In this document: piece after piece, positions 15,795-54,869 of the stretch
How positions within the stretch are numbered: position 1 is the first letter of the stretch
Layout: each line of letters starts with the position of its first letter
Assembly (NCBI GenBank): GCA_963708135.1
Contig: OY970192.1
Location: forward strand, 1,280,001-1,344,000
Direction of reading: 5' to 3'
DNA from: an uncultured Gemmatimonadales bacterium
GTDB lineage: Bacteria > Gemmatimonadota > Gemmatimonadetes > Longimicrobiales > RSA9
Length of the DNA: 64,000 nt
The notes under the pieces: model-generated
The model's input: only the letters and a program-made list of their open reading frames with translations
Databases searched by the model: none
Told to the model about the DNA's origin: nothing
Made by a program: the position numbers and the translations under genes

Positions 15795-15970
15795 GCCTCG
15801 TCGCCCTCCCGCGCCGGCCGCGGCGCCGCTCCGTGGCGCGGCCGCTCCGCGCGCGGCCCGAAGAATGTCCTGCCGCCCACCCTCCGGCAACCGTCGCCGT
15901 TGCGGTGCGTGCGCCCGGCGCGTACCATGCCACTCCCACGAGAGAGCCCGCTCATCCCTGGAGCACAACC

Positions 15971-27602: not shown

Positions 27603-29045
27603 ATGGAAAGCCTGAAGCGGCATCTCGGAATCCTGATGGCGATAGTTCTGACGGCGGGAGCGGTTGCGGGGTGTGTGGACGAGAAGAAGGTTCTCGAGCC
27701 GAGCCCGAGCTTCGAGACGCCGCCCGCGGCGGCGGAGGGCTTCCTCGGTTACGCCGACACCGTGGCGGGGAAGCCGGTATGCGGCAACTGCCACGCCGGC
27801 AAGTACGCGGAGTGGAAGCAGACGAAGCACGCGCAGGCGTGGGCGGACCTGCAGGCCAGCGGCCATGCCACGGCGGCGTGCGAGGGCTGCCACACGGTGG
27901 GCGCGTACGGGAACCTGGTCGTGGACTCGATGGTGGGGTGGACGGCGACGCACGACGCGCGCTATCACGACGTGCAGTGCGAGAGCTGCCATGGGCCGGG
28001 GATGACGCACGTGACGAACGCGGACGCGAGCCAGCCGCTGGCGTCGATGCTGGTCGGGGTCGGCCTGAAGAGCGGCTGCGGGGAGTGCCACTCGGGGACG
28101 CACAACCCCTTCCTCGAGGAGTGGTCGCAGTCGGCGCACGGACTCGTGCCCCACCAGTCGGGTCACGCCGGCCAGGCGGAGCCCTGCATTTCCTGCCACA
28201 CGGGGGACGTCGCGCTGCAGTCGTGGGGTGAGGATCCGAACTACCTGGAAAAGGACAGTCTGCAGGCGGTGGCCGGCCACCTGCCCATCAGCTGCCCGAT
28301 CTGCCACGATCCGCACAACGCGACGATCGACAAGCAGCTGCGCTTCCCGATCGATGTCGCCAGCGTGGACGACAACCTGTGTATGAAGTGCCACCACTAT
28401 CGGGGCACGCCGGACCCGACGTCGTCGCACGGCCCGATGTCGCCGCAGGGCCCGCTTCTGCTCGGACTGGCGGGCTGGCGCTCGCCGGACTTCGGGCCGA
28501 CCCAGGATCTAAAGGGAACGCACGGCTCTTCGGGCAACAAGGACCTGTGCGTCACCTGTCACGTGGCCCGGATGGACGTGACGGACGCGAGCGGCACCGT
28601 CGTCTTCAATTCGACCGGCCATCTCTTCGTGGCCACGCCCTGCCTCGACGCGGCCGGCAAGCCTACGGCGGCCGAGGACTGCGAGACCAGCCAGCGCAGC
28701 TTTGCGGCCTGCGCGCAGAGCGGCTGCCACGGAAGTCCCGACGCCGCGCAGTCGGCGGAGAGTGTGGCGCGCACCCGCATCGCCGACCTGGTGGCCGAGG
28801 TCAACGCGATGGTGAGCAGGGCGCCCGCGTCGGAGTTCAACACGAGCGACCCGACCTCGACCGCGGAGGGCGCGAAGTTCAACGCCGACCTCGGAGCCAT
28901 GGCGGGATCTCCGATCCACAATCCGTTCCTGATGGAGGCGCTGCTGACGGCCAGCATCAAGCAGCTCCAGAAGGACTACGGCATCGTGCCCACGGCCGGT
29001 GTCACCCTGAACAACGTCCTTCCCCGCGAGGTCATGTCGAAGTAG
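27603..29045 (+). CDS. Multiheme c-type cytochrome lipoprotein (8 CxxCH + 1 CxxxxCH), copy 1
   Basis: Lipobox VAGC; CGNCH, CEGCH, CESCH, CGECH, CISCH, CPICH, CMKCH, CVTCH, CAQSGCH; helical C-terminus. Confidence 0.9.
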   Translation: MESLKRHLGILMAIVLTAGAVAGCVDEKKVLEPSPSFETPPAAAEGFLGYADTVAGKPVCGNCHAGKYAEWKQTKHAQAWADLQASGHATAACEGCHTVGAYGNLVVDSMVGWTATHDARYHDVQCESCHGPGMTHVTNADASQPLASMLVGVGLKSGCGECHSGTHNPFLEEWSQSAHGLVPHQSGHAGQAEPCISCHTGDVALQSWGEDPNYLEKDSLQAVAGHLPISCPICHDPHNATIDKQLRFPIDVASVDDNLCMKCHHYRGTPDPTSSHGPMSPQGPLLLGLAGWRSPDFGPTQDLKGTHGSSGNKDLCVTCHVARMDVTDASGTVVFNSTGHLFVATPCLDAAGKPTAAEDCETSQRSFAACAQSGCHGSPDAAQSAESVARTRIADLVAEVNAMVSRAPASEFNTSDPTSTAEGAKFNADLGAMAGSPIHNPFLMEALLTASIKQLQKDYGIVPTAGVTLNNVLPREVMSK

Positions 29046-29080: not shown

Positions 29081-29935
29081 ATGTCGAATCGAGTGCTGGG
29101 GTGGCTGGCGCTGGCCACCGTGACCGCCGCGTGCGGGGGGGACGCGCTCCCCCCCGCGCCGACGGCCACCACGGACAGCGTGGCCGTGGCGAGGATCCTC
29201 GCCACGGCGCCGCTCGGCGGCAGCACCCGTCCCTCCTCCGTGGCGGCCACGCCGGCGGACAGCGCCTCGAAGGCGGCGCCGCTCTCACCCACGGCGTTCC
29301 GCCATGAGAAGCACCGCGGCCTGGTCTGCCAGCGCTGTCACCCGGCGGTCCCCGGGCACGCGCGGCACACCAACGTCGCCTGCACGTCGTGTCACCCGGC
29401 GGTGCCGGTCACCGGGCCCGCGCCGGGCCCGGCCGAGTGCGGCGGGTGCCATCACGCGGCCGTGCAGGGCCGCGCGTGCACGAGCTGCCACGATCCCACG
29501 GCGCGTGGCACGCTGGCGCTACAGCGCTCCTGGGATCTTTCGGTGTGGGGCGCCCCACGTCTTCGCGACGTGAAGTTCGACCATCGCTGGCACGAGGCGC
29601 GGCCGTGCGGCGCCTGCCACACCGACCGGCCCTCCCTCGTCTCCACGCGTGCGTGCGCCTCCTGCCACGAGCACCACGAGGGCCGCGCGGATTGCCGCAT
29701 CTGCCACGTGGCCCCGCCCGTGGGCGTGCATACCCTGGCCGCCCACCAGGGCTGTGCGGGGCAGGGCTGCCACCGGGACCCGCCGGTCCGGAAGGCGACG
29801 CTCTCCCGCGACGAATGCCTGCTTTGCCATGCCGACCGCGAGCGCCACCAGCCCGGACGCGCCTGCGCGCAATGCCACATGCCCCAGGCGGCGGCGCGCG
29901 CGCCGCCGGCGGGGCGGGAGCCCACGTCCCCATGA
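29081..29935 (+). CDS. Decaheme cytochrome c lipoprotein (9 CxxCH + 1 CxxxxCH)
   Basis: Lipobox TAAC-GG; c3/c7-like FxHxxH motifs; GGAG RBS. Homologous to the C-terminal half of 50087-51925. Confidence 0.85.
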   Translation: MSNRVLGWLALATVTAACGGDALPPAPTATTDSVAVARILATAPLGGSTRPSSVAATPADSASKAAPLSPTAFRHEKHRGLVCQRCHPAVPGHARHTNVACTSCHPAVPVTGPAPGPAECGGCHHAAVQGRACTSCHDPTARGTLALQRSWDLSVWGAPRLRDVKFDHRWHEARPCGACHTDRPSLVSTRACASCHEHHEGRADCRICHVAPPVGVHTLAAHQGCAGQGCHRDPPVRKATLSRDECLLCHADRERHQPGRACAQCHMPQAAARAPPAGREPTSP

Positions 29936-31443
29936 GCCCGGATAGTCCTCGTTCCACCCTTCGCGCTCGCTCGCCCCTCCTGGCGGCGGCGCTGCTCCTC
30001 GCCGAGCTGGGCGCCGGCGCCGGCGCGCGTCCAGTCTGCGCGCAGAGCGTGAGGATCAGCGGCACCTCTACCGTGCGCTACCTCGAGCTGCAGCCCCTCC
30101 AGATCGACAGCATCCCCGTCTCGAGCACGACCGGCGACGGTGTGCTGCGTCGAGCGGGCGATGGCCGGACGGTGGAATGTGTCGATCCCGCCCCCTACTG
30201 CTATGCCTACGGCAGCGGCTCGGAGGTCTCGACCACGCCCGGGTTGCAGGACCTGCGCGTCAGTGCCTGGGGGTTCGGCCGCGGCGTGCGCTTCTACTCG
30301 CACGTGCGTGGCCGCGCCGTCGTAGCCGGCAGCTCCTCCCTCTGGCCTCTGGCCGGCGACCCCTTCGACATGCTGGAAGGGTACCTAGAGCTGGACCGCC
30401 CACGCTTCCGTGTACGGGCCGGCCGCCAGTGGGATGTCGGGGGACTCAGCTTCGCCAACTTCGACGGCGCCTCGCTGCTGGTTCGGCCGCTCCGCCAGCT
30501 GCGCCTGGAAGGTTACGGCGGCTGGAGCCTGCAGACCGGACTGAACGAGCCGGTCACCAGCGCCGCCATCGCGGCCGTCGAGCCGTTCGCGCCGGACTCG
30601 CGCGGCCTCCTCCTCGGCCTGCGTGCCGAAGCCAGGCCGGCCGCCGCGCTCTCGCTTTCCGCAACGTACGAGAGACAGGTCCGGCAGGACCAGGCGGGCC
30701 TCTACTCGGAGCGCGTGGCCACGGACGGACTGCTTCGCGGCGCCCTGGTGTCGCTGGACTGGGTCCTCCAGGCGGATCTCGCCAATGCGGAGCTCAACGA
30801 GCTGCGTGGTCGGGTCGTGTACACGCCGGCGTCGCGTCTCACGCTGCGCGCCTTCGCGCGCCGGCACCGGCCCTACTTCGAGCTGTGGACCATCTGGGGC
30901 GCCTTTGGCGCGGTCGGCTTCACGGAGGGAGGGATCGGCGGCAGCTGGCGGAGCGCGGGAGGGGCGCTGACCCTCGACGCCCAGGGCGCCCGCCGACGCT
31001 ACCTGGAGACCGGGGCGGAGCTCGGCTTCGCGCCGCTCCACGCCGACGGCTGGACGCTCGACGCCAACGCCGCGGCGCGTCTCGCTCCGCACTGGAGCCT
31101 GGACGGCCAGTACCAGTGGGACCTCGGCTTCGGTGCCGGCAAGAGCCAGGGTCTCGCGCGGCTCCGTCGCACGCTGCCCGGCGGCGCGTCGCTGGCCGCG
31201 ACCGCTACGGCGTTCCAGATGGCCGGTGAGCTCCGTGTGAGAACCGGCACGGTGGCGGGGCTCGGCCTCGAGGGTGGGCTGCCGATCGGGGCCCGCAACC
31301 GGCTGGACGCCTCCCTCTTCGACTACCGCCACTTCGGAGCGGCACCCGAGATGGGCCCGGACTGGAGCCAGCTGCGCGCCAGCCTCTCCTTCAGCTGGAC
31401 CGTCGGAGCCGAGCCCGGCCTGCCGGCACCCGGGAGGATGTGA
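29932..31443 (+). CDS. Putative outer-membrane beta-barrel protein (copy 1)
   Basis: Signal peptide; alternating amphipathic strands (YLELD..RFRVRAGRQW, LRLEGYGG, LRASLSFSW); no heme motifs; translationally coupled to flanking cytochromes; paralogue at 51922. Confidence 0.7.
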   Translation: MSPDSPRSTLRARSPLLAAALLLAELGAGAGARPVCAQSVRISGTSTVRYLELQPLQIDSIPVSSTTGDGVLRRAGDGRTVECVDPAPYCYAYGSGSEVSTTPGLQDLRVSAWGFGRGVRFYSHVRGRAVVAGSSSLWPLAGDPFDMLEGYLELDRPRFRVRAGRQWDVGGLSFANFDGASLLVRPLRQLRLEGYGGWSLQTGLNEPVTSAAIAAVEPFAPDSRGLLLGLRAEARPAAALSLSATYERQVRQDQAGLYSERVATDGLLRGALVSLDWVLQADLANAELNELRGRVVYTPASRLTLRAFARRHRPYFELWTIWGAFGAVGFTEGGIGGSWRSAGGALTLDAQGARRRYLETGAELGFAPLHADGWTLDANAAARLAPHWSLDGQYQWDLGFGAGKSQGLARLRRTLPGGASLAATATAFQMAGELRVRTGTVAGLGLEGGLPIGARNRLDASLFDYRHFGAAPEMGPDWSQLRASLSFSWTVGAEPGLPAPGRM

Positions 31444-32909
31444 TGCGCGCGCCCGCCCTGCCGGCGACTCTGCTGCTGGCCTTCGTCCTGGTCTGTGCGC
31501 CGCCTCCGGCCGCTGGCCAGAAGCCGCGCCCAGCTGGCGGCGCGGCGCCGGCGGCCGGGCGCTTCCCGCATGCTCGCCACGAGGGCCTCTTTCCGCAGTG
31601 CACCGTATGCCACCGTGGCGTGGAAACGGGCGACGCCGACGAGCGCTACCCCGCCCCCGCCGCATGCCGAAACTGCCACGACGGCTCGACGCGGCAGCCC
31701 GTCAACTGGACCGGGCCCACGGTGCGGGTCTCGAACCTGAGCTTCTCGCACCCCCGGCACGACGCGGCCGTGAGCTCGGCGGGGGAGAGCACCGCGTGCC
31801 TCGACTGCCACCGCACGCCGGGCGAGAGCGGCCGCATGGCGGTCAGTCCGCCGCAGCCGCAGTACTGCACCGGCTGCCATGCACACCACGCCTCCGCGCA
31901 CATGGCTCCGGAGGCGCGGTGCACCACCTGCCACCTCCCGCTCGCAAGCACGAGGCTCTCCGAAGCCGCCGTCGCCGCGCTCCCCAAGCCGCCCGACCAC
32001 GAGGCCGCGGACTGGGTGCTCCAGCATGCCCCCGCCAGCCCGGCCGTGGCCGCGGCGCGCTGTGCCATCTGCCACGCCCGTGAGAGCTGCGAGCGCTGCC
32101 ACATGAACGCCGCCTCGATCCCGGCCATCCAGGCGCTCGCGCGCGACCGACGTGTGGCCGCGCTGCTCCGCGACCGCGCGCCCAGCTATCCCCGACCTCC
32201 GAGCCACGGGAGCGGCAGCTGGGACTGGAAGCACGGCGCGGCGGCGGCCGGCGGGGCGGCTGGGCGCGAAGCCTCCGCATCGACCGCCGCCGGCTGCAGC
32301 GACTGCCATGCCCGGGCGAGCTGCCGTGCGTGTCACCGGGACGGCAGCACGCCCGCGATCGAGGCGCTCCCGGAGCCCGGCGGCCGCCGGCCGGCCGGTG
32401 TCAGCGTCGCGCCCCGACCGGTCCATGCCGCCGGCTTTCTGAAGGACCATCCGACGCAGGCGGCCGCGGGTGTCGCGTGCGCCGCCTGCCACACCCGGAG
32501 TTTCTGCGTGGACTGCCACCAGGGACAGAAGGCCGGCTACCACGCCCCGAACTTCGTCGAGCAGCACGGCCCCGAGGCGTACGCGAACGACACGCAATGC
32601 TCGGAGTGCCACAGCAACGAGGCCTTCTGTCGTACCTGCCACCTGCGCACGGGGCAGGGGGCCCGCACCCGCAACGGCGCGGCCTTCCACGGCGAGCAAC
32701 CGCTGTGGCTGCTGAGCCATGGCCAGGCGGCGCGGCAGGGACTCGAAGCCTGCACCGCCTGCCACACCCAGACCAGCTGCGCGGAGTGCCACTCCGCAGC
32801 CGGTGGCTGGGGCGTCAACCCGCACCCGGCGAATTTCGACGCCAGACGCGCCCGCGAACGAAACCCCTCGAGCTGTCTGCACTGCCACGCGGAGCTGCCC
32901 AATGACTAG
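31443..32909 (+). CDS. 16-heme c-type cytochrome (copy 1)
   Basis: Signal peptide; 16 CxxCH including five closely paired doublets such as CAICHARESCERCH. Confidence 0.88.
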   Translation: MRAPALPATLLLAFVLVCAPPPAAGQKPRPAGGAAPAAGRFPHARHEGLFPQCTVCHRGVETGDADERYPAPAACRNCHDGSTRQPVNWTGPTVRVSNLSFSHPRHDAAVSSAGESTACLDCHRTPGESGRMAVSPPQPQYCTGCHAHHASAHMAPEARCTTCHLPLASTRLSEAAVAALPKPPDHEAADWVLQHAPASPAVAAARCAICHARESCERCHMNAASIPAIQALARDRRVAALLRDRAPSYPRPPSHGSGSWDWKHGAAAAGGAAGREASASTAAGCSDCHARASCRACHRDGSTPAIEALPEPGGRRPAGVSVAPRPVHAAGFLKDHPTQAAAGVACAACHTRSFCVDCHQGQKAGYHAPNFVEQHGPEAYANDTQCSECHSNEAFCRTCHLRTGQGARTRNGAAFHGEQPLWLLSHGQAARQGLEACTACHTQTSCAECHSAAGGWGVNPHPANFDARRARERNPSSCLHCHAELPND

Positions 32910-34266
32910 ACGCGTGGAGAACGCGGAGCGCCGCTCCTCGCGCAGCTCCTGGCACGGATCCCTGCGGCGCGGGGCGCTCGCGGCGTGGATGCTCCTCCTC
33001 CTGCTCGTGCCCGTGCTGGCGCGCGCCCAGGAGAAGCCCACCGCCGACAGGTGCATCGCGTGCCATCGGAAGCTCCCGGAGGAACGCCTTTCCGCGCCCG
33101 CCCGGACGTTCTCCGACGACATCCACTCCCAGAAGGGTCTCGGTTGTCTGGCCTGTCACGGCCTCGTGGCGCAGCACGGCGGCGATCCGCGAAACATCGT
33201 GCCCGGAACGGGCTTCCTCACCAGGCCCGCGCGGCGCGACATTCCGGCCCTTTGCGGCCGTTGCCACTCCGATGCGGCGTTCATGAAGCGCTACGACCCG
33301 ATGCTCCGTGTCGACCAGGTCGCGGAGTACCGGAGCTCCGTGCACGGCAGACGGCTCTTCGAGGACGGCGACACGGCCGTGGCGACCTGTATCGACTGCC
33401 ATCCCGCGCACCGCATCCTGGCGCCCTCGGAGCCCGCCTCGTCGGTGTATCCTACGCATGTGGCCGACACCTGCGGCCGCTGCCACTCCGATCCCGCACG
33501 CATGGCCGCCTACGGCCTGCCGACCGACCAGGCGAAGAAGTGGCGCGCCAGCGTGCACGGAGAGCAGATGCTGAAGAAGGGCGACACCTCCGCGCCCACC
33601 TGCAACGACTGCCACGGCAATCACGGCGCCGTGCCGCCCGGCGTCTCGGACGTCCCGCACGTGTGCGGCCAGTGTCATTCGACCATCGCCGAGCTGTTCG
33701 CCGGAAATGGACACGACAGCATCTTCGTCGCCGGCAAGCTGCCGGGTTGCGTCACCTGCCATAGCAACCACGAGATCGAGCAGCCGAGCGATTCCCTGCT
33801 CGTCGTGCGGGCGCGCACCGTGTGCGGCCGCTGCCACCGGTCGGGCGACCCGGCAGGGCGACAGTTCCTCGTGATGCGGTTGCTGGTGGACACGCTGGGC
33901 GCCGCGCGCGCCCGGGCGCAGGCCGTGCTCACCCGGGCGGACAACCTCGGCATGGACGTCAGCCAGGCGCAGTTCGAGCTGAGTGACGTGACCAACGCAC
34001 TGACAAAGGCCCGCAACGCGATCCACTCCTTCCGGGCCGACTCGGTGGCCGCCCAGGTCTCCGCGGGCCTGAAGACCGCCGACCACGCCGCCCGCCAGGG
34101 CCGAGCGGCGCTCGCGGAGCACCGCTTCCGCCGTGTCGGGCTCGGGCTCTCCGTGCCCGTCATCCTCGGCCTCGCCGGCGGACTCTGGCTCCGCCTGCGG
34201 ACCCTCGAGGGCGAATCCGAAGACGATGAGGACGACGGCCACCACCCACGTGGCCAGGAGCGCTGA
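32902..34266 (+). CDS. Nonaheme cytochrome c with C-terminal membrane anchor
   Basis: 9 CxxCH; SVHG repeats; helical stalk and a C-terminal TM (GLGLSVPVILGLAGGLWL); directly upstream of the Rieske gene. Confidence 0.85.
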   Translation: MTRRVENAERRSSRSSWHGSLRRGALAAWMLLLLLVPVLARAQEKPTADRCIACHRKLPEERLSAPARTFSDDIHSQKGLGCLACHGLVAQHGGDPRNIVPGTGFLTRPARRDIPALCGRCHSDAAFMKRYDPMLRVDQVAEYRSSVHGRRLFEDGDTAVATCIDCHPAHRILAPSEPASSVYPTHVADTCGRCHSDPARMAAYGLPTDQAKKWRASVHGEQMLKKGDTSAPTCNDCHGNHGAVPPGVSDVPHVCGQCHSTIAELFAGNGHDSIFVAGKLPGCVTCHSNHEIEQPSDSLLVVRARTVCGRCHRSGDPAGRQFLVMRLLVDTLGAARARAQAVLTRADNLGMDVSQAQFELSDVTNALTKARNAIHSFRADSVAAQVSAGLKTADHAARQGRAALAEHRFRRVGLGLSVPVILGLAGGLWLRLRTLEGESEDDEDDGHHPRGQER

Positions 34267-34268
34267 TC

Positions 34269-34742
34269 ATGTGCGACTGTCAGAACGCCCCCCCCGCACC
34301 GCCGCCGCCGCTGCTCTCCCGCAAGCGGTTCATCGACTGGCTGCTGGGCACGACCTTCGGTGGCCTCGTCGTCGCCGTCGCCTATCCGGTGCTGCGCTAC
34401 ATCGTGCCCCCGGAGGCGGGCGAGGCCTCCCTCAACTCGGTGACGCTCCCGGTCAAGGCCTCGCAGGTGGCCGCCAACTCCGGCCAGATCTTCAAGTTCG
34501 GCAACAAGCCGGGCATCCTCATCCGCACCCCGTCGGGCGAGCTGCGCGCGTTCACCGCGGTCTGCACGCATCTCGGCTGCATCGTGCAGTACGACAGCGC
34601 CCATTCCGACATCTGGTGCGCCTGCCACAATGGCCACTATGACACCACCGGGCGGAACGTCTCGGGCCCGCCGCCCAAGCCGCTCTCGCCCTACGCCGTC
34701 AACGTGCGCGGCGACGAGATCGTCGTCAGCAGGGAGGCCTAG
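34269..34742 (+). CDS. Rieske [2Fe-2S] subunit of a bc/b6f-type complex
   Basis: CTHLGC and CACHNG boxes, GPPPKPL, Tat-like SRKRF followed by a TM helix. Confidence 0.92.
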   Translation: MCDCQNAPPAPPPPLLSRKRFIDWLLGTTFGGLVVAVAYPVLRYIVPPEAGEASLNSVTLPVKASQVAANSGQIFKFGNKPGILIRTPSGELRAFTAVCTHLGCIVQYDSAHSDIWCACHNGHYDTTGRNVSGPPPKPLSPYAVNVRGDEIVVSREA

Positions 34743-34743
34743 C

Positions 34744-35826
34744 ATGGAGGATCCACGCCGCGGCCTCGCCGCCCGCCTCCAGGCCTGGCTGGACGACCGC
34801 ATCGGCTTCAGCGCCCTCCTGCCGCTGATCCGCAAGAAGCGGGTCCCGGTGCACCGCCATTCGATCTGGTACTTCCTCGGCGGCATGGTGCTCTTCCTGT
34901 TCATCCTCCAGGTGTGCACCGGCATCCTCATGCTGTTCTACTACCGCCCGAGCGCCGAGCAGGCCTACGACTCCGTGCAGTTCCTGATGACCCAGGCGAG
35001 ATTCGGCTGGCTCATCCGCTCCATCCACGCCTGGGGCGCCAATCTCATGATCTTCGTGCTGTTCCTCCACATGTTCAGCGTCTGGTTCCTGAGAGCCTAT
35101 CGCGCCCCCCGGGAGCTGACGTGGATGAGCGGCCTCGGTCTCCTCGGTGTCGTCCTCGGTCTGAGCTTCACCGGCTATCTCCTGCCCTGGAACACCCTGT
35201 CCTACTTCGCCACCCGTATCGGAACCTCCATGCCCGGCGTACTCCCCGGCATCGGGCCCTTCATCCAGCGCATGATGCGCGGCGGCGACGACGTGAGCGG
35301 CGCGACCCTGACCCGCTTCTACGCGCTCCACACCTCCGTCCTTCCCGGCCTCACCTTCCTCCTGCTGGGACTCCATGTCCTGCTCGTCCAGCGCCACGGG
35401 ATGAGCGTGCCCCGGAGCGTCGAACGGAAGGGACCGCCCCGCTCCGTCCCCTTCGTCCCCGACTTCCTGCTCCACGACCTCATCGGCTGGCTCCTCGCCC
35501 TCGCCGCCATCGCCGCCCTCGCCGTCTTCTTCCCCGCCGAGCTCGGCACCAAGGCCGATCCCTTCAGCCCCGCCCCCGCCGGGATCAAGCCCGAATGGTA
35601 CTTCCTCGCGCCCTACCAGACGCTCAAGTACCTCCCCGCCACCATCCTCGGCATCGCTGGCGACGCGCTCGGCGTTATCGTCTTCGGCCTCGCTGCCGGC
35701 CTGCTCGTCTTCCTCCCGTTCCTGGACCGCCCGCGCAGCGGCGAATACACCCCCTTCTGGCGCGTCGTGGCCTTCCTCACCCTCGCCTACCTCATCGTCT
35801 TCACCTACCTCGGACTGAGCTCCTGA
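34744..35826 (+). CDS. Cytochrome b of a Rieske/cytochrome b complex
   Basis: IRSIHAWGA...LHMF, FTGYLLPW, RFYALH...LHV, IKPEWYF. Confidence 0.92.
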   Translation: MEDPRRGLAARLQAWLDDRIGFSALLPLIRKKRVPVHRHSIWYFLGGMVLFLFILQVCTGILMLFYYRPSAEQAYDSVQFLMTQARFGWLIRSIHAWGANLMIFVLFLHMFSVWFLRAYRAPRELTWMSGLGLLGVVLGLSFTGYLLPWNTLSYFATRIGTSMPGVLPGIGPFIQRMMRGGDDVSGATLTRFYALHTSVLPGLTFLLLGLHVLLVQRHGMSVPRSVERKGPPRSVPFVPDFLLHDLIGWLLALAAIAALAVFFPAELGTKADPFSPAPAGIKPEWYFLAPYQTLKYLPATILGIAGDALGVIVFGLAAGLLVFLPFLDRPRSGEYTPFWRVVAFLTLAYLIVFTYLGLSS

Positions 35827-36321: not shown

Positions 36322-37800
36322 ATGATACCAGACTTCAAGCGACATATCGGCGTCTGCGTGGCCGCCGTCCTTGTGGCGTTGGCGGTGACGGGGTGCGTGG
36401 ACGAGAAGAAGGTGTTCGTGGAGCGTCCGCTGTTCGAGCAGCCGTCGGCGTCCGCCGCCGGCTTCATCGGCTACACGGACACGACGACGCAGAAGACGGT
36501 GTGTGGCAACTGCCACGTGGATCATCAGGCGGAATGGACGCAGACGAAGCACGCGTCGGCCTGGGTCGATCTGCAGGCGAGCGGCCATGCCTCGGCCACG
36601 TGCGAGCCGTGCCACACCGTGAACTCGCAGGGCAACGCGGTCACGGATCCGAACGTCGGGTTCGTGGCCACGAAGGACCCGCGCTACCACGACGTGCAGT
36701 GCGAGGCGTGCCATGGGCCTGGCCTGGATCACGTCACGACGCCGGACGGCAACACCGCGCCGCTGGCCTCGATCGCGGCGGACAGCGGGATGACGAACGG
36801 CTGCGCCGAGTGCCACACCGGCACGCACCATCCGTTCGTGGAGGAGTGGCAGAAGTCGAAGCATGCGACGCTCGAGCCGCACGTGCGCGACGGCATCATC
36901 GCGGGCACGGACCGCTCCGAGTGCCTCAAGTGCCACTCGGCCCAGGGCGCGCTCAAGCAGTGGGGCGTGACGAGCAACTACCTGGAGAAGAACGCCGCGC
37001 CGCAGGACTATCTTGGCATCACGTGCGCGGTGTGCCACGATCCGCACAGCGACAAGAACGTCGGCCAGCTGCGTTTCTCGATCGGCGCGCAGGACACGGC
37101 CACGAACCTTTGCATGAAGTGCCACCAGCGCGAGGGTGAGGCGAGCCCGACCAACTCCCGTGGTCCGCACTCGCCCGAGGGCCCACTGCTGCTCGGCGAG
37201 GCCGGCTGGTTCCCGCCCAACCTGATCGCCCAGGGGATCGTCCCGGGCAGCATCAAGGGCACCCACGGCTCGGAGGCCAATCCGGGGCTGTGCGCCACCT
37301 GCCACGTGAGCAGCTTCACGGTCACCGATCCCACGATCGGCGGCACGTTCACGGCCACGGGGCACCTGTTCTCGGCCACGCCGTGCATCGATCCGACGAC
37401 GAACCGGCCGACCACGGATGAGAGCTGTGACATCACGCAGCGCAGCTTCAAGGCCTGCACGGCCAGCGGCTGCCACGGCTCGGAGGCGGTCGCCCGTTCC
37501 GCGGAGCAGACGGCGCGCATCCGCATCCAGAACCTCGTCGATGAGGCCTACCGCCTCGTCGCGCTGGCTCCGGCGTCGGAGTTCAGCACGACGGATGGCA
37601 AGGTCACGACGGCGGAGGGCACCAAGTTCAACGCGCAGCTGGGTGATGAGGCGAACAAGCCCGGCAGCGTCGTTCACAACCCGTTCCTGGTCGAGACGCT
37701 GCTCACGGCCAGCATCAAGCAGATGCAGACGGACTACGGCCTCACGGCCGCGCCCGGCATCTCGCTGCAGAACGTTCTCAAGCAGCCCGGGATGAAGTAG
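36322..37800 (+). CDS. Multiheme c-type cytochrome lipoprotein (8 CxxCH + 1 CxxxxCH), copy 2
   Basis: Lipobox VTGC-VDEKKV; collinear with 27603-29045 (RYHDVQCExCHGPG, HNPFL, LLTASIKQ shared). Confidence 0.9.
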   Translation: MIPDFKRHIGVCVAAVLVALAVTGCVDEKKVFVERPLFEQPSASAAGFIGYTDTTTQKTVCGNCHVDHQAEWTQTKHASAWVDLQASGHASATCEPCHTVNSQGNAVTDPNVGFVATKDPRYHDVQCEACHGPGLDHVTTPDGNTAPLASIAADSGMTNGCAECHTGTHHPFVEEWQKSKHATLEPHVRDGIIAGTDRSECLKCHSAQGALKQWGVTSNYLEKNAAPQDYLGITCAVCHDPHSDKNVGQLRFSIGAQDTATNLCMKCHQREGEASPTNSRGPHSPEGPLLLGEAGWFPPNLIAQGIVPGSIKGTHGSEANPGLCATCHVSSFTVTDPTIGGTFTATGHLFSATPCIDPTTNRPTTDESCDITQRSFKACTASGCHGSEAVARSAEQTARIRIQNLVDEAYRLVALAPASEFSTTDGKVTTAEGTKFNAQLGDEANKPGSVVHNPFLVETLLTASIKQMQTDYGLTAAPGISLQNVLKQPGMK

Positions 37801-38436: not shown

Positions 38437-39753
38437 GTGATCCTACGGGAGAGGTCCATGCAGATCAAGTTCCTGGCCCGCGAGGGCATGCAGAAGAGTC
38501 GGATTGCCGAGCGGCTGGGCGTCAGCCGCCAGACCGTCTACAACCACCTGAAGCGAAAGGAGGGAGAGCCGTTTCCGAAACCGCGATCGAAACGGGTCTC
38601 GAAGCTGGAGCCGTTCAAGGAGCACATCCGGGCGCGGCTGGAGTGCTTCGATCTGCCGGCCACGGTGCTCGTCCAGGAGATCCGGGCGCAGGGCTATCGT
38701 GGCGGACTGACGCTGCTGCGGGAGTTCGTGCGCCCGCTGAAGCAGGAGTTCGTGCGGCGGGTGACGGAGCGCTTCGAGACGCTGCCGGGGCAGCAGGCCC
38801 AGATCGACTGGGGGGAGTGCGGCAGCATCGAGGTGGGCGGCGAGCGCCGGACGCTCTACGTCTTCGTCATGGTGCTGGGCTACAGCCGGATGATGTACGC
38901 GCGCTTCACGACCAGCTCGAAGCTGCCGGTGCTGCTGGCCTGTCTCGTTCGTGCCTTCAATGCGCTCGGCATCCCGAAGGAGATCCTGGTCGACAACATG
39001 AAGCAGGCGGTCGAGCAGCACGACGTCACCACCGGCACGGTGCGCTGGAACAAGGGCTTCCTGGATTTCGCCGAGCACCACGGCTTCCTTCCGGTGGCGA
39101 GCCCACCGTACTGGCCACGGGTGAAGGGGAAGGTCGAGCGGGGCGTGGGCTACCTCAAGACCTCGTTCCTGGAGGGCCGCACCTTCACCGACCTCGAGGA
39201 CCTGAACCGGCAGCTTGCGGTCTGGCTGGACACGGTGGCCAACGTGCGGATCCACGGCACCACCGGGCAGCGGCCGATCGACCGCCATGCGCTCGAGCTC
39301 GCGCACCTGCGGCCACTCGCAGCCGTGCCGGCCTACGACGTGCGCCCGGTGGAGCTCCGTACGGTCCCCTCCGACAGCCACATCAGCTACGGCGGGGTGC
39401 GCTACAGCGTGGATCCCATCGCGGTGGGTGGCACGGTGGTGGTCCGCTCGGAAGGGGGCGCGGTGGGAGACGCCTTCTCGGTCTACTTCGGTGCGCACCT
39501 GGTCGCGTGCCATCGGAGAAGGCCCAGCGGCTCGCCCCGCGTGACCCTGCCCGAACACGCGGCGCAGATCCGACGCCTCACGCGCGGCAGCGCCGAAGCG
39601 GCCGCTCGCCGCCGAGGCCATCAGCCAAGCTACGTACAGGTGGGCCAAGGCGGAGGCATTCTCTTGCTGGAGCGGATCCAGCGCTCGGCTCCGCAGGTCC
39701 AGGTGCAGCCGCTCTCGGCGTATGAGCGCCTCCTCGGGGACGGTGCGGCGTGA
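38437..39753 (+). CDS. istA: IS21 transposase IstA
   Basis: N-terminal HTH; RFETLPGQQAQIDWG, DN, KGKVERGV, N.RIHGTT, YSV. Start may be ATG 38458. Confidence 0.93.
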   Translation: MILRERSMQIKFLAREGMQKSRIAERLGVSRQTVYNHLKRKEGEPFPKPRSKRVSKLEPFKEHIRARLECFDLPATVLVQEIRAQGYRGGLTLLREFVRPLKQEFVRRVTERFETLPGQQAQIDWGECGSIEVGGERRTLYVFVMVLGYSRMMYARFTTSSKLPVLLACLVRAFNALGIPKEILVDNMKQAVEQHDVTTGTVRWNKGFLDFAEHHGFLPVASPPYWPRVKGKVERGVGYLKTSFLEGRTFTDLEDLNRQLAVWLDTVANVRIHGTTGQRPIDRHALELAHLRPLAAVPAYDVRPVELRTVPSDSHISYGGVRYSVDPIAVGGTVVVRSEGGAVGDAFSVYFGAHLVACHRRRPSGSPRVTLPEHAAQIRRLTRGSAEAAARRRGHQPSYVQVGQGGGILLLERIQRSAPQVQVQPLSAYERLLGDGAA

Positions 39754-40520
39754 GTGCGGCCGTGAGCTATGAGCGGGTGCGGGACCAGCTCGGGCGCCTG
39801 AAGCTCGAGTCCGCGCTTGCCTCCCTGGACAGCGTCCTCGAGCAGGGGCAGAAGCAGGAGCAGCTCCCGGTTGAAGTGCTCGATGAGCTGCTCGGCCGCG
39901 AGCTCGCCACCCGCTTCGAGCGCCGCGTCAGCACCAACCTGAAGCTCAGCGGCATTCCGGCACCCAAGACCCTGGAGAGCTTCGACTTCGACGCCCAGCC
40001 CTCCGTGCCGAAGGAGGTCATCCGGGAGCTCGCCACGCTGCGCTTTCTCCATCAGGGCGAGAACGTCGTGTTCCTCGGGCCCTGCGGGGTCGGCAAGAGC
40101 CACCTGGCCGTGGCCCTCGCGATCCGGGCGATCGAGCGCGGGCACCGCGCCTACTTCCTCAGCCTCCACGAGCTGGTGACCCGCTCCCGCGTGGCGCGCG
40201 AGAAGAACCGCCTCGACATCCTCCTGCGCGTCATCATCCGCGCCGATCTCTTCCTGCTCGACGAGGTGGGATACCTCCCGCTCGAGAGCGAGGACGCCAC
40301 CTTCCTCTTCGAGGCCGTAAGCCGCCGCTACGAGGCCAACAAGTCGATCCTCCTCACCAGCAACAAGAGCTACGGGCAGTGGGACGAGATCTTTCCGGAT
40401 CCGGTCCTCGCCACCGCGCTCCTGGACCGGCTGCTGCACCACGCCACCACCATCAACATCCGCGGCGAGAGCTATCGTCTCCGCAACCGCCGCGGCGCCG
40501 GCCTCACCACCACCCACTGA
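39750..40520 (+). CDS. istB: IS21 helper ATPase IstB
   Basis: GPCGVGKSHLA, LLDEVGY, LTSN, LDRLLHHA, GESYR. Confidence 0.95.
   Translation: MSAAVSYERVRDQLGRLKLESALASLDSVLEQGQKQEQLPVEVLDELLGRELATRFERRVSTNLKLSGIPAPKTLESFDFDAQPSVPKEVIRELATLRFLHQGENVVFLGPCGVGKSHLAVALAIRAIERGHRAYFLSLHELVTRSRVAREKNRLDILLRVIIRADLFLLDEVGYLPLESEDATFLFEAVSRRYEANKSILLTSNKSYGQWDEIFPDPVLATALLDRLLHHATTINIRGESYRLRNRRGAGLTTTH

Positions 40521-44218: not shown

Positions 44219-44222
<4 letters not shown>
42912..44222 (-). CDS. 11-heme cytochrome c with C-terminal TM helix (CbcL c-domain-like)
   Basis: Signal peptide; 11 CxxCH; DSYHG, HGILP..DPRS, C-terminal FMSLLLVGVLSVFGLHTLLW. Confidence 0.85.
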
Positions 44223-45589
<1,367 letters not shown>

Positions 45590-49579: not shown

Positions 49580-49957
49580 CAATCCCTCTTGGTCGTCTGT
49601 CGTTCGTCTCGAGGCGCGCGACACCGGGACCCCCCGGCCCCGTCGAGCCCGTCTGCCGGGGCCCGGTCACGCGCCGCTCCCCCCGGCAGCATTCATGCCC
49701 CATGCTGTCCCGTTCCGTCCCGCCCGCGCCGGCGCCGCCGAATCGGCCGCCGCGTCCTGATCTGCCAGCCCGCGGCGGGCACTTTCCGGGCTGCGCCATC
49801 CACTCCCTGGCGGCGCGCCGCCGGATCGCCCATTCTTTCCGGTCATGTCGCGCAAAGCCCCAACCAACGTTTACCTCCGCGGCAGAATGTCGCAAGGTTC
49901 CGTTCCGCCCGCGGCGAATCTTGGCGCCGGGCAAGGTCTTTCGCGCGCGAGGCGGAC

Positions 49958-50086: not shown

Positions 50087-51925
50087 GTGAGTGGCCCCTC
50101 TGTTTGGGAGCGGCTGCGCGGGTGGGCCTTCGGGATCTCGCGGGGCTGGCTGATTGCGGCAGCGGCGGCGGGCGCGGTCATCGTCATCGTCGGCGGAGCG
50201 CTGCTGTTCCGGACGTACAACTACGTCCAGTACAACAACAACTTCTGTCTGCAGTGCCACCTCATGGCGGGGCCGTACGCCCGCTTCCAGCAGAGTGCCC
50301 ACCGCGGCCTGGGCTGCAAGGCGTGTCACCATCCGACGCCGATCGCGCGGGCCAAGATGGGCCTGACGCAGATCATCAAGCAGCCGACCAGCATTGAAGC
50401 CCATGCCGAGGTACCCAACTCGGCGTGCGAGAAGTGCCACGTGGAAGGGAACCCCAGGGAATGGACGCTGATCTCGGCGTCGGTCGGCCACCGGATCCAC
50501 TTCGAGTCGAAGGACACGGCGCTGAAGGGCCTGGCCTGCGTGCGCTGCCACTCCGTGTCGATTCACGAGTTCGCGCCCGTGGATCGCACGTGCGCGCAGG
50601 CGGGCTGCCACACGAACACGAAGATCAAGCTCGGCAAGATGGGCCAGCTCACGATCCACTGCGTGGTCTGTCACAACTTCAACAAGCCGGATACGCAGCG
50701 GGTCGGCCCCGATTCGCTGGCGCTGGCGCTCCGCCCGCAGCGGGAGGAATGCCTGAGCTGCCATGCCATGCGGCAGAAGGTCGGCGTGTTCCCCGCCAAC
50801 GAGCCCCACAAGGGCGTGTGTGGCGCGTGTCATGATCCGCACACCCAGTCGACGCCCGCGGAGGCGGTGCAGTCGTGCTCGAACGGCGGCTGCCACGAGC
50901 GGGCGGACACGATCACGCCGGCGCACCGCGGCCTCGAGCCCGGCGTGCTCGAGCGCTGCACGAACTGCCACGTCGCCCACACCTGGAAGCCGAAGGGCCA
51001 GGTGGACGACTGCCGGTCCTGCCACACGAAGATCTTCGAGGCGACGCCGCCCGGCGCGAGCACCCGCGCGGCGCTTCCGCCTCCGCCGCGCGGCCCGGCC
51101 GCGGCCGCCGCCGCGGGATCCGCCGCGGCCGCGGCACCCGCGCAGCCCGGGCGCGGAGCCGCCGAGGTCGGGCCGGCCGGCGAGGCCTCCCTGGGCGCAG
51201 CTCTCCTGCGGCTCGTGGGCGGCGCATCCCACGCCAGGCCCGCCTCCCGGCGGCCGCTCACCCCGGAGCATCCATTCCGCGCCGTCACGCAGGAGCCGCA
51301 GCAGCCCGTGGCTGGAACCGTGGCGCGGTGGGGCGGCCATTTCGACCATCGCACCCACCGGCAGCTCGACTGCCTGCAGTGCCACAGCATGCAGGACACC
51401 CACGGCGCGCTGAAGGTTCGCACGAAGCAGGACTGCGAGTCCTGCCACCACTCCGCGGATCAGAAGCGGCCGTGCGCCAGCTGCCATACGGCGGCCGAGC
51501 TGGGCTGGCAACGACCCGAGAAGGTCGAGGTCCGCACGAGCGTGTCGCGGACGACCACCACCCGGACGTTGCCGTTCCCGCACGCGCGCCACACGTCGCT
51601 CCAGTGCTCGGCGTGCCACGGGCCGCCGCCCACGTACACGCCGCGCGTGGACTGCGAGTCGTGTCACAGCAAGCACCACCAGGCGAACGCCGAGTGCAGG
51701 CTCTGCCACGCCGGGCTGCCGCTCAAGGCGCACACGCGGGCCGCGCACCTGGCGTGCGGCGGTAGCGGGTGCCATCAGGACGCGGCGGTCGCCTCCCTGT
51801 CCTGGTCCCGCGAGGTCTGCCTTGCCTGCCACCAGGACCGGGTGCTGCACGAGCCGGGACTCGCCTGTGAGAGCTGCCACAAGGTCCCGGCCCTCCATTC
51901 AACGACGAAGAGGTCCGCGCCATGA
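50087..51925 (+). CDS. NapC/NirT-like membrane-anchored 20-heme cytochrome (17 CxxCH + 3 CxxxxCH)
   Basis: N-terminal TM, then NNFCLQCHLM...SAH..LGCKACH (NapC/NrfH-like start). An Ala/Pro linker separates the 11-heme and 9-heme halves. Confidence 0.85.
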   Translation: MSGPSVWERLRGWAFGISRGWLIAAAAAGAVIVIVGGALLFRTYNYVQYNNNFCLQCHLMAGPYARFQQSAHRGLGCKACHHPTPIARAKMGLTQIIKQPTSIEAHAEVPNSACEKCHVEGNPREWTLISASVGHRIHFESKDTALKGLACVRCHSVSIHEFAPVDRTCAQAGCHTNTKIKLGKMGQLTIHCVVCHNFNKPDTQRVGPDSLALALRPQREECLSCHAMRQKVGVFPANEPHKGVCGACHDPHTQSTPAEAVQSCSNGGCHERADTITPAHRGLEPGVLERCTNCHVAHTWKPKGQVDDCRSCHTKIFEATPPGASTRAALPPPPRGPAAAAAAGSAAAAAPAQPGRGAAEVGPAGEASLGAALLRLVGGASHARPASRRPLTPEHPFRAVTQEPQQPVAGTVARWGGHFDHRTHRQLDCLQCHSMQDTHGALKVRTKQDCESCHHSADQKRPCASCHTAAELGWQRPEKVEVRTSVSRTTTTRTLPFPHARHTSLQCSACHGPPPTYTPRVDCESCHSKHHQANAECRLCHAGLPLKAHTRAAHLACGGSGCHQDAAVASLSWSREVCLACHQDRVLHEPGLACESCHKVPALHSTTKRSAP

Positions 51926-53385
51926 GAGCCGGATGCATCCTGATCCTGCTCGCGGCGTTTACGGCTGGTTCCTTGTCGGCGCAGGGGTTTCGGATCACGG
52001 GGGTCTCGACCGCGCAGTATATCGATGCGCGGCCTCTGGCCTCCGACAGTGTCCCCATCTCCCAGGCCCTCGGGACCGGCACGCTGCGGCAGACCGCCGA
52101 CGGCACGATCGTCAGCTGCACCAGTGCGGGATCGTACTGCTACTTCCAGCGCTCGGGTGCCACGCTCGCGGCCGTGCCCCTGATCCAGGATCTGGAGGTC
52201 AGCGCCTGGGGGCTCGCCACCGGGCTGCGCTTCTACGCGGATCTGCGCGGCCGCGCCGCGGCTGGCGATGCCGCCAGCTACTGGCCCCGCGCCGGTGATG
52301 CGTTCGACGCCCTCGCCGCCTACCTCGAGCTCGACCGCACCCGCTACCGGGTCCGGGTCGGACGCCAGTGGATGACCTCGGGGCTCGGCCTCTACAACTT
52401 CGATGGCGGCGACCTCGTCGTTCGCCCCCTGACCGGGGTCTCCCTCGAGGGCTACGGCGGGTGGAGCCTGGCCAACGGCCTCGACGAGTCCTACACCAGC
52501 AACGCCATCTCGGCCGTCGAGCCCTTTGCCCCGGACGAGGGCGCCTACATCCTGGGCGCCCAGCTTCACGTGCGTCCCACGCCGCGCTTCTCCGCGAGCG
52601 CTCTCTATCAGCGCGAGATCCGGAGGGACCGGGCGGGCCTCTACTCGGAGCGCGTCGCCGCGGACGCCCGGCTGCTCGTGCGCGGCTTCACGCTGGACGG
52701 CGCGCTTCAGGCGGACCTCGCCTCCGGCGACGTCAACGAGGGCCGCCTGCGCGTCCGCCTCCCGAGCCTCGCCGGGCTCGCGCCCACGCTCCAGGTCCGC
52801 CACTACCAGCCGTTCTTCGAGCTGTGGACCATCTGGGGCGCGTTCTCTCCCGTCGGCTTCGACGAGGCCACGGCGACCCTCGACTGGGCGGCCATGAACG
52901 GCCGCCTCGCCCTCGCGCTGCACGGCGGCCGCCGCCGTTACGGCGACACCGGCACCGGGGTGGAGTTCGCGCCGCTCCGCAAGGAGGGCTGGACCGCCGG
53001 TGGCGACCTCACCCTGCGGCCGGCCAGCGGCTGGACCGCCCTGGGCAGCTACGACGCCGACATCGGCTTCGGCGCGGCCTCGACCAACGAGACCGTCTCG
53101 CTCCGGCGTGAGCTCGGCGCGGTGGGCTACCTCGGAGTGACCGGGCTGGCGTTCCAGAACGCCTACGAGTTCCAGGTCGGCGAAGGGCGCGTGTGGGGTG
53201 GGGGAGTGACGGCCGGCGTCCGGCTGACGGATGCCGCGCGCGTCGATGGCAACATCTACAGCTACGTGCACCACGACCGCGGCAATGCGGCCGTGGACTG
53301 GACGCAGATGCGCGGACAGCTCCAGCTGTCGTGGTCCGTCGGCGCCGATCCCGGAATGCGGCGGCTGAAGGAGGTGGGGCCGTGA
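51922..53385 (+). CDS. Putative outer-membrane beta-barrel protein (copy 2)
   Basis: Signal peptide ending SA-Q; paralogue of 29932-31443 (QDLxVSAWG, YLELDR, EGYGGWSL, AVEPFAPD, AGLYSERVA, FELWTIWGAF). Confidence 0.7.
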   Translation: MRAGCILILLAAFTAGSLSAQGFRITGVSTAQYIDARPLASDSVPISQALGTGTLRQTADGTIVSCTSAGSYCYFQRSGATLAAVPLIQDLEVSAWGLATGLRFYADLRGRAAAGDAASYWPRAGDAFDALAAYLELDRTRYRVRVGRQWMTSGLGLYNFDGGDLVVRPLTGVSLEGYGGWSLANGLDESYTSNAISAVEPFAPDEGAYILGAQLHVRPTPRFSASALYQREIRRDRAGLYSERVAADARLLVRGFTLDGALQADLASGDVNEGRLRVRLPSLAGLAPTLQVRHYQPFFELWTIWGAFSPVGFDEATATLDWAAMNGRLALALHGGRRRYGDTGTGVEFAPLRKEGWTAGGDLTLRPASGWTALGSYDADIGFGAASTNETVSLRRELGAVGYLGVTGLAFQNAYEFQVGEGRVWGGGVTAGVRLTDAARVDGNIYSYVHHDRGNAAVDWTQMRGQLQLSWSVGADPGMRRLKEVGP

Positions 53386-54869
53386 GGACCCGTCTCTTCG
53401 CCGCGGCCCTCATGGTCGCGGCCACCGCCAGCGGCCTCTGGGCCGTCGCCTCGCGGGAGCGTGGCTTCCCGCACGAAAAGCACGCGCGGCTGTTCCCGGT
53501 GTGCACCGGCTGCCACACGGGAATCGCCGCCGGGGATACGGCGAGCTTCTACCCGGATGCCGCCTTCTGCGCCCGCTGCCATGATGGCAAGCGCGAGCCG
53601 ACCGTCGACTGGACCGGCCCTCACCGGCGGCCGACCAACCTGGCCTTCTCGCACCCGGACCACTTCCAGCGCACCGCTGCGCAGGGCGTGACGCCCGATT
53701 GCCAGACGTGCCACGGCGTCCCTGGCGCCACTGTGCCCATGGCCGTGGAGGAGGCCACGCCGCAGCAATGCATCGCCTGCCACACCCACCAGGCGCCGAC
53801 GCACCTCGCCGAGAGCGCCGTCTGCCGGACGTGTCACGTCCCCGTGGCCAGCGCGAGCGGCCTCGACACGGCGGCCATCGCGGCCTTCCCGCGGCCCGCC
53901 ACCCACACGGCCGCGGACTTCCTCCAGACCCACGGGAAGGGCGTCGGCGCCGCCCAGGCGCAGGCACGCTGCGCCATCTGCCACGCCCGCCAGAGCTGCG
54001 AGCGCTGCCATCTCAACGCCGGATCGGTGGCGGCCATCGCTGCGCTCCAGCCCGATCCCCGCATCGCGGCGCTCGTGGCCGCGAAGAGTGCACGCTACCC
54101 GGAGCCGGCCAGCCACCGCAGCCCCGACTGGAAGCTCGCCCACGGCGCGCGCGCCCGGGCAGGCATCGCGACGTGCGCGAACTGTCACTCCCGGGCGGGC
54201 TGCACCACCTGTCACATCGGGGGCACGGCCGCCCAGGTCATTGCCGCGCTCCCGGCGCCCCGCCCCGGCGGACCGGCCGGCGCGCTCGCCGGCCGGCGCT
54301 ACGCCGCCCGCGAGCCGATCACCCCTGGTGCGCCCCTGTCCAGCGCCGCGCTGCAGGGCGCCGGTGGCACGCGCATGCACCCCGCCGACTTCGCCACCAC
54401 GCACGGCACGGCGGCCGCGGCGGGCCAGCCGAAGTGCTCGAGCTGCCACGAGCAGGCCTACTGCCAGAAGTGCCACGCGGCACCCTCGCGGCCGGGATTC
54501 CACCCTCCGGACTTCATGGCGCGCCACGGCGCGCAGGCGTTCTCGAGCCAGACCGACTGCATGACCTGCCACAACCGCCAGGCCTTCTGCAAGACGTGCC
54601 ACGAGAACTCCCGGATCGCCGCGGGCGCTACGGCCGGGCCGTTCCACACCAGACAGCCGCTCTGGCTGCTCCAGCACGGGCAGGCGGCCCGCCAGGGGCT
54701 GGAGTCGTGCGCCTCGTGCCACAAGCAGCAGGACTGCCTGCGCTGTCACTCCGACATCGGCTGGGGCGTCAATCCGCACGGGCCCGGTTTCGATGCGGAC
54801 AAGATGGCCGCTCGAAACCAGCTCGTCTGCGCCCGCTGCCACGTGGGCGCCACGCCCCGTAAGCCTTAG
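53382..54869 (+). CDS. 16-heme c-type cytochrome (copy 2)
   Basis: 16 CxxCH collinear with 31443-32909 (FPHxxH, CAICHARxSCERCH, HGQAARQGLE, WGVNPH). GTG start overlaps the barrel stop codon. Confidence 0.88.
   Translation: MRTRLFAAALMVAATASGLWAVASRERGFPHEKHARLFPVCTGCHTGIAAGDTASFYPDAAFCARCHDGKREPTVDWTGPHRRPTNLAFSHPDHFQRTAAQGVTPDCQTCHGVPGATVPMAVEEATPQQCIACHTHQAPTHLAESAVCRTCHVPVASASGLDTAAIAAFPRPATHTAADFLQTHGKGVGAAQAQARCAICHARQSCERCHLNAGSVAAIAALQPDPRIAALVAAKSARYPEPASHRSPDWKLAHGARARAGIATCANCHSRAGCTTCHIGGTAAQVIAALPAPRPGGPAGALAGRRYAAREPITPGAPLSSAALQGAGGTRMHPADFATTHGTAAAAGQPKCSSCHEQAYCQKCHAAPSRPGFHPPDFMARHGAQAFSSQTDCMTCHNRQAFCKTCHENSRIAAGATAGPFHTRQPLWLLQHGQAARQGLESCASCHKQQDCLRCHSDIGWGVNPHGPGFDADKMAARNQLVCARCHVGATPRKP

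Follow-up and report, generated by a model that had tools for sequence, protein, structure and literature searches.

A putative porin-cytochrome conduit of Gemmatimonadota centred on a conserved pair of genes for a predicted β-barrel and a 16-heme cytochrome

A 64,000-nucleotide stretch of DNA from an uncultured Gemmatimonadales bacterium (assembly GCA_963708135.1, contig OY970192.1, positions 1,280,001 to 1,344,000; hereafter the window) carries a run of genes that encode, in order, a nonaheme lipoprotein, a decaheme lipoprotein (A), a predicted outer-membrane β-barrel (B), a 16-heme cytochrome (C), a nonaheme cytochrome (D), a Rieske protein, a cytochrome b and a second nonaheme lipoprotein (Table 1). 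The genes for B and C form a nearly invariant pair in related loci. These genes most likely belong to the class of porin-cytochrome conduits, in a form found in Gemmatimonadota. For a particular wiring, in which electrons would pass from a quinol-oxidising module through D and A to C within B and on to the nonaheme lipoprotein, our confidence is lower than for the class, and we estimate its probability at roughly two-thirds.

A preliminary description of this DNA, made without database searches, had proposed a conduit composed of A, B and C, and it held that the proposal should fall if homologues occurred mostly without cytochrome neighbours. The opposite was found. Our main locus set consists of the best 80 of 307 GTDB loci, of which 78 are titled as Gemmatimonadota taxa and two as "uncultured bacterium". 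A C gene lies directly 3' of the barrel gene in 79 of these 80 loci, and the single miss falls at a contig edge. Where there is room on the contig, C follows the barrel directly in 71 of 71 loci and has exactly 16 hemes in 68 of them. A C homologue also follows the barrel in all 40 regions of a further set, which was hand-picked for long contigs and comes mostly from a more distant clade. When 192 loci are taken together (a total that includes duplicates, the locus studied here and 42 loci retrieved with a barrel-C query), every one of the 174 barrel ends with room has C. Among 301 genomes sampled from Gemmatimonadota, the present one included, 131 have a match to the barrel profile; a barrel search of this genome finds only two, B and a paralogue, B2.

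The overlapping stop and start codons reported earlier for the three genes are indeed present, as an ATGA overlap between A and B (29932-35) and a GTGA overlap between B and C (31440-43), each of 4 nucleotides as read from the sequence. The 4-nucleotide overlap between B and C is kept in 77 of 79 cases in the 80-locus set and at 166 of the 174 barrel ends with room in the pooled 192 loci. Chance or wrong-frame open reading frames were ruled out by residue shuffling, which in 2000 trials gave at most two CxxCH motifs for A and three for C (observed, 9 and 16), and by the G+C content at third codon positions, which is 0.88-0.91 across all five genes tested.

B was described earlier as a heme-free protein of about 500 residues with a signal peptide and amphipathic strands. 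All of this is borne out: B has no heme motif, its signal peptide extends to about Q38, and most of its strands are clearly amphipathic. The barrel prediction and strand count that the preliminary description called for were obtained with AlphaFold2 from a 120-sequence alignment (predicted local distance difference test score [pLDDT] 87.2, predicted template modelling score 0.81). The model is a barrel of 22 long strands, the first of which starts directly after the signal peptide (residue 39 on), and it contains no plug. The first loop holds a β-rich insert (residues 54-98) with a pair of cysteines, Cys83 and Cys90, that is invariant in the alignment. Another loop, residues 313-329, has a column conservation of 0.87, compared with 0.60 for the mature protein, and its residues 318-326, inside the WTIWGAF loop, are modelled with pLDDT under 50. 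A second loop, residues 203-216, is also conserved yet poorly predicted. Because both loops combine conservation with poor modelling, they may become ordered on a partner.

In structure, B comes closest to the barrel portions of TonB-dependent receptors with 22 strands (Z 15-18), among them FyuA (Z 18.1, root-mean-square deviation [rmsd] 4.7, 369 residues aligned, for chain 137-651 only). MtrB is also a structural neighbor (Z 14.7, rmsd 6.3, 359 aligned), and Foldseek returns generic barrels too. A TonB-dependent receptor was rejected for B, since strand 1 directly follows the signal peptide and no plug or TonB family match was detected; B also differs from these receptors in its low identity to them (about 10%) and in its cytochrome neighbors. 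Sequence comparison of B with Pfam, NCBIfam and the PDB gives no family match; with solved structures, only two chance matches (E 0.56 and 0.91) were obtained, and a profile search gave none. For 68 homologues of B, the best signals in Pfam and NCBIfam are weak generic porin matches in three members.

In 68 sequences, C contains 16 CxxCH motifs and exactly 16 histidines outside these motifs, all invariant. This suggests 16 bis-histidine hemes without an open catalytic site, and, judging from sequence, C is likely an all-bis-His wire. Its architecture comprises a 5-heme c7/c3-like N-terminal domain, five diheme repeats (H..H..CxxCH-x4/5-CxxCH) and a terminal single heme. The paired CxxCH doublets ascribed earlier to the chain therefore account for 10 of the 16 hemes, with five others located in the c7/c3-type domain and one standing alone at the end. 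The first 130 residues are homologous to A (hhalign 98.1%). An HmcA-type 16-heme cytochrome was rejected for C, as the match is limited to these N-terminal 130 residues.

Natural variants of C carry 18 hemes (L122), 12 hemes (L139, L146 and L150, where repeats 1-2 are absent) or nine hemes (L123, L134 and L140, where the head is absent). The last seven hemes are kept in every length variant seen, and repeat 5 is the most conserved segment of the protein (0.63). The model of C is confident over residues 1-230. Fold searches return nothing at E up to 0.001, and the best Z of 3.6 is to ACIII ActA, for the N-terminal domain only; this absence of a fold match does not show that the fold is new. Sequence comparison of the seven-heme core with solved structures gives a best E of 0.2, and no match to plasmids was found. 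Among the best 120 of 281 matches to the core, most are unnamed fragments, and the named ones are from Gemmatimonadota or, in one case, Eisenbacteria. Matches to unnamed clusters from Myxococcota, Ignavibacteriota and Thermodesulfobacteriota (0.90-0.94) serve as a lead only.

For the interface between B and C, the membrane side of each lipoprotein, the direction of flow and the acceptor, we infer the following arrangement. B would sheathe the C-terminal hemes of C, forming a conduit for respiratory electrons out of the cell. Menaquinol would be oxidized at the PEWY site of cytochrome b together with the Rieske protein, from which electrons would move to the membrane-anchored D and then to the tethered A. 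From A they would enter the periplasmic, c7-like end of C and travel along the diheme repeats through the barrel. The surface nonaheme lipoprotein would then receive the electrons and pass them to an external acceptor, such as metal oxides, humics or another cell. The arrangement is consistent with a 990-residue database protein (P0412) that joins a barrel and a full 16-heme C in one chain, with C placed after the periplasmic C-terminus of the barrel. The linker has no visible signal peptide, and the head of C would therefore be periplasmic.

Several observations weigh against this proposal. The loci are related by kinship, so that the counts given above are not independent. The P0412 fusion is a singleton that was not recovered as DNA, and it was not found among the 42 metagenome loci. 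A frameshift in the barrel gene of another locus (L057:9617-12937) mimics a barrel-C fusion while leaving the signal peptide of C present; this apparent fusion is probably an assembly error, and it demonstrates that frameshifts can fake such proteins. Mutual information between B and C in 80 paired loci gives no clear signal (maximum Z 4.8, compared with 4.4 for shuffled pairing). Likewise, distance-matrix correlations do not single out C, as they are 0.81 for B and C, 0.80 for B and the nonaheme lipoprotein, and 0.71 for B and A. The C-terminal half of C is poorly modelled, with pLDDT of about 45-60 over residues 290-400, and this, coupled with the lack of any match above Z 3.6, leaves the picture of C as a thin rod unsupported. 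By formula, with an assumed shear number, the Cα diameter of B is estimated at ~40 Å, versus ~48 Å for 26 strands, a lumen narrower than that of MtrB. The best GspE match scores 614.7 bits against a cut-off of 630.25, so a route for a lipoprotein to the surface is not established. Finally, the overlap between A and B is likewise well kept, in 63 of 71 loci.

This last point bears on an unlikely alternative, in which the conduit is the same but A or the nonaheme lipoprotein occupies the barrel, or sits MtrC-like on the surface, and C is a periplasmic feeder only. Among the 71 loci with room, 70 do have an A-type or nonaheme cytochrome directly 5' of the barrel, and A of the window is a lipoprotein (lipobox TAAC18) followed by a low-complexity Ala/Pro/Thr tether. 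The decaheme character assigned to A earlier also holds, as nine CxxCH motifs and one atypical CX4CH. However, A varies among loci, appearing as a 10-heme lipoprotein, as a soluble 9-heme protein, or, in about 21 of 71 loci, as the part of a fusion protein that follows a membrane-anchored NapC-like domain. It follows C in L019 and L028, is not beside the barrel in L040, L134, L135, L143, L145, L148 and L150, and is made of compact c7/c3-type modules.

The variation in A follows the inner-membrane partner. Because the lipobox pattern is loose (L011 and L043 escaped it, and L038 and L049 were flagged), forms of A were counted by heme number. Genes for D, Rieske and cytochrome b lie 3' of the 10-heme form in 29 of 30 loci with room, and the exception, L037, is due to the distance limit only, as the three genes are present slightly further away. 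The same genes are downstream in none of eight loci with 9-heme A, none of 12 with 20-heme NapC-fused A, and one of 11 with no or partial A. CbcL-like cytochrome b and multiheme genes take the place of the Rieske/cytochrome b module in some loci, and in L135, A and the D-Rieske-cytochrome b genes are on the other strand, apart from the genes for the nonaheme lipoprotein, B and C. Since A changes with its inner-membrane partner, it likely links inner-membrane modules to C as a periplasmic adaptor.

The nonaheme lipoprotein, which adjoins the barrel where A is elsewhere, is the better candidate for an outer-surface cytochrome. Of 57 loci with 4 kb or more of upstream sequence, 54 contain it, and it is absent nearby in some CbcL-type loci (L123, L139, L140 and L146). 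Its occurrence upstream and that of the Rieske/cytochrome b genes downstream (27603-29045 and 32902-35826) agree with the preliminary description. Its porin-cytochrome reading agrees with the prediction of a large plug-less barrel and with the cytochrome almost always found beside the barrel, but its module boundary appears to need change: the constant pair is the barrel and C, whereas A is variable and the nonaheme lipoprotein had been placed outside the module.

Two sets of cytochromes accompany particular forms of these genes. Loci with soluble 9-heme A are followed by a conserved pair of genes for a 5-heme and a 4-heme protein (L039:5767-7481, L047:7706-9702, L056:9626-11424); a PPxIPH-type motif recurs in the 5-heme protein and is, in our view, reminiscent of NapB. 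Loci in which C is short or the partner is of the CbcL type have a small secreted tetraheme cytochrome, which contains a pair of PH..EG..CxxCH repeats and is a possible periplasmic shuttle.

The quinol module bears on the direction of flow. Box II of the Rieske protein reads HNG rather than HGS in 31 of 31 proteins examined, and PEWY is present in 30 of 31 cytochromes b. Absence of the serine from box II marks Rieske centers as low-potential and menaquinol-oxidizing. The genome, which is 97.65% complete, also encodes futalosine-type menaquinone genes and three heme-copper oxidases and has no RuBisCO match. Outward flow in a heterotroph is favored by these features but not proven. The converse, in which Fe(II), reduced humics or a partner cell would supply electrons that flow inward to oxygen, or to the quinone pool by a reversed Rieske/cytochrome b module, is improbable, although the heme-copper oxidases speak for it too. 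Such inward flow has been proposed for MtoAB. He et al. 2017 (PMC5566968) proposed it for the PCC3 and PCC4 clusters, and partners of the CbcL/MtoC type, which stand beside the barrel in other loci, are described in both reducers and oxidizers (PMC6295460). Nearly every locus here, unlike MtoAB, has a candidate for the surface lipoprotein.

Two further cytochrome b genes are found in the window. One (15833-17047) encodes a second bc-type protein with fused subunit IV and has PFWPFLW in place of the expected PEWY. The other (42016-42915) encodes an FdnI-like cytochrome b and lies on the minus strand between genes for an 11-heme cytochrome and a 13-motif cytochrome, the three together resembling a split CbcL-like quinol module (40679-44240). 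Relatives of the 11-heme cytochrome and of the FdnI-like protein adjoin the barrel in L112, L117, L146, L148 and L150.

It is equally improbable that the barrel is simply a pore, either exporting C, perhaps as a surface filament, or letting in a soluble acceptor (a selenium or sulfur oxyanion, for instance) that would reach the nonaheme lipoprotein, then a periplasmic redox enzyme, as has been suggested in connection with Geobacter ExtI. The nearest named ESM Atlas clusters of B are polysaccharide-export-type barrels (BBP2_2 and EpsX; 0.91-0.92, 155-158 shared features), and the lumen is rich in arginine (26 of 140 inward positions). The nonaheme lipoprotein has only seven conserved distal histidines for its nine hemes, plus an extra cysteine pair, and shows weak ExtKL- and UshA-like matches, while cytochrome b has a weak ExtP match, all of these being under cut-off. 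However, the barrel is translationally coupled, 1:1 and almost without exception, to a single cytochrome that is likely all-bis-His, and this suits a stoichiometric complex better than a general pore. Moreover, a plug-less 22-strand barrel would need filling, and in the single fusion C follows the periplasmic C-terminus of the barrel.

The proposed conduit resembles the Geobacter Pcc systems (OmbB-OmaB-OmcB, ExtABCD and ExtEFG) and the two-gene Anaeromyxobacter pcc in that a porin gene and a periplasmic multiheme cytochrome gene stand side by side as a constant pair. Shi et al. 2014 (PMC4245776) describe porin and periplasmic cytochrome as a co-evolving pair, with 18-22 predicted strands for the porins, a range that includes the 22 of B, and with 5-14 hemes for the cytochromes. 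A lipoprotein cytochrome is usual in those systems, often with atypical CX3-4CH motifs, and the nonaheme lipoprotein here has a CX4CH. In contrast, C mostly has 16 hemes (9- and 12-heme forms exist), carries a c7/c3-like head and a variable number of repeats, and shares its operon with an adaptor cytochrome and a quinol module of the inner membrane. A distant kinship to Geobacter Pcc may or may not exist.

MtrCAB, MtoAB and PioAB (PDB 6R2Q) similarly combine a barrel, a periplasmic multiheme wire and a surface lipoprotein cytochrome. Mature B, however, has 22 strands and 466 residues, whereas MtrB has 26 strands (PMC12133095) and about 650 residues. The gene order here is barrel and then cytochrome, and C is not an MtrA/DmsE decaheme. 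None of 68 barrels is matched by the MtrB/PioB model TIGR03509, even with E allowed up to 1 (NCBIfam, Pfam); the MtrA/DmsE model TIGR03508 has none in C or A of the window and matches four of 68 C members (best E 0.011). Membership in MtrAB, MtoAB or PioAB was rejected on the grounds of strand number, heme number and the lack of TIGR03509. According to PMC7096707, type II secretion is required for MtrC, and MtrA does not reach across the periplasm.

PCC3 and PCC4, as defined by He et al. 2017 (PMC5566968), are likewise putative porin-cytochrome clusters, in which a b-type inner-membrane partner accompanies several multiheme cytochromes. The partner here is a bc-type Rieske/cytochrome b, the membrane genes of the module being D, Rieske and cytochrome b. 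No PCC3/PCC4-type five-transmembrane SGXXG protein with two WX3HX13H motifs was seen in this module, for which no dedicated profile search was made. A study of ghost-rock (PMC13264449) mentions petB/petC-linked porin-cytochrome clusters in SAW209, a Gemmatimonadota metagenome-assembled genome. These may be the same system, and the available text there gives no barrel family, fold or range. A 2026 peat preprint (10.64898/2026.05.27.727921) describes four divergent conduits, which belong to Acidobacteriota and Verrucomicrobiota; in its main text, as far as available, there is no mention of Gemmatimonadota, a term also missing from the available supplement of PMC11475568. Further literature for comparison includes PMC13591261, PMC11492766, PMC11495043 and PMC9671151. 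A paper defining the barrel family of B was not found in the literature searched, which covered few subscription journals.

Table 1. Coordinates of the conduit genes and associated features (positions in the window unless a locus is named)
Feature	Coordinates	Strand	Remarks
Nonaheme lipoprotein	27603..29045	+	8 CxxCH and 1 CX4CH; N-terminal c554-like domain; extra Cys pair conserved
A, decaheme lipoprotein	29081..29935	+	284 aa; c7/c3-type modules on flexible tether
B, predicted plug-less outer-membrane β-barrel, 22 strands	29932..31443	+	503 aa; unnamed family
B loop 313-329 (RPYFELWTIWGAFGAVG)	30868..30918	+	Candidate partner-binding loop
C, 16-heme cytochrome	31440..32909	+	Cleavable signal peptide; 16 CxxCH
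C-terminal seven-heme core of C	32412..32906	+	Candidate barrel-inserted segment
D, nonaheme cytochrome	32902..34266	+	C-terminal transmembrane helix; likely substitute for cytochrome c1
Rieske 2Fe-2S protein	34269..34742	+	Box II CACHNGHY
Cytochrome b, subunit IV fused	34744..35826	+	PEWY quinol-oxidation motif; PF00033 and PF00032
Second nonaheme lipoprotein paralogue	36322..37800	+	
Paralogous module 2	50087..54869	+	20-heme fusion, barrel B2, 16-heme C2
Module 2 NapC/NrfH-like and A-domain 20-heme fusion	50087-51925	+	
Module 2 barrel B2	51922-53385	+	46% identical to B
Module 2 C2, 16 hemes	likely 53382 to 54869	+	
Small tetraheme cytochrome (six other loci)	L123:6574-7005, L134:5404-5877, L139:6070-6492, L140:2353-2967, L148:5287-5712, L150:4944-5357		Possible periplasmic shuttle

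Other genes were noted around the cytochrome island, with some labels taken from translations. These include ccm genes on both flanks and, within the island, two overlapping open reading frames that resemble an IS21-type transposase/ATPase pair (38437-40520). A membrane protein without an NCBIfam match (47191-48372) and a small TPR lipoprotein (49199-49624) are encoded on the minus strand, and relatives of this pair recur near conduit genes in many loci. Large, unassigned multiheme open reading frames (23 and 16-19 CxxCH) lie within a few kb of conduit genes in L113:12780-17001, L114:457-3971 and L116:13357-17001.

The conduit would work like Mtr and Pcc, and the kind of system is already known. 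The locus adds a constant barrel-C pair, a modular wire whose seven-heme tip is fixed, and an adaptor that is exchangeable and here goes with the Rieske/cytochrome b module. A more ambitious and rather doubtful combination of these features is a phylum-wide, independently built conduit in which the seven-heme tip of C would be fixed in the 22-strand barrel while its periplasmic arm telescopes in diheme steps (9, 12, 16 and 18 hemes). The exchangeable adaptor would dock onto any of three quinol modules, namely Rieske/cytochrome b, the NapC fusion or a CbcL-type module, and so hard-wire them to the surface. If this is true, extracellular respiration at the locus would be directly coupled to a Q-cycle complex, and nearly half of the genomes in Gemmatimonadota would be electroactive.

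The locus offers direct tests of these proposals, because it comes with natural length variants of C, one natural fusion that is a ready query for folding the barrel-C pair, and a Rieske/cytochrome b module that shares an operon with an outer-membrane conduit. As no Pfam or NCBIfam model covers the barrel, surveys of extracellular electron transfer that rely on markers would miss it. Should the proposed function be correct, a common phylum of soils and sediments would be a large, uncounted player in the redox cycling of iron, manganese and humics.

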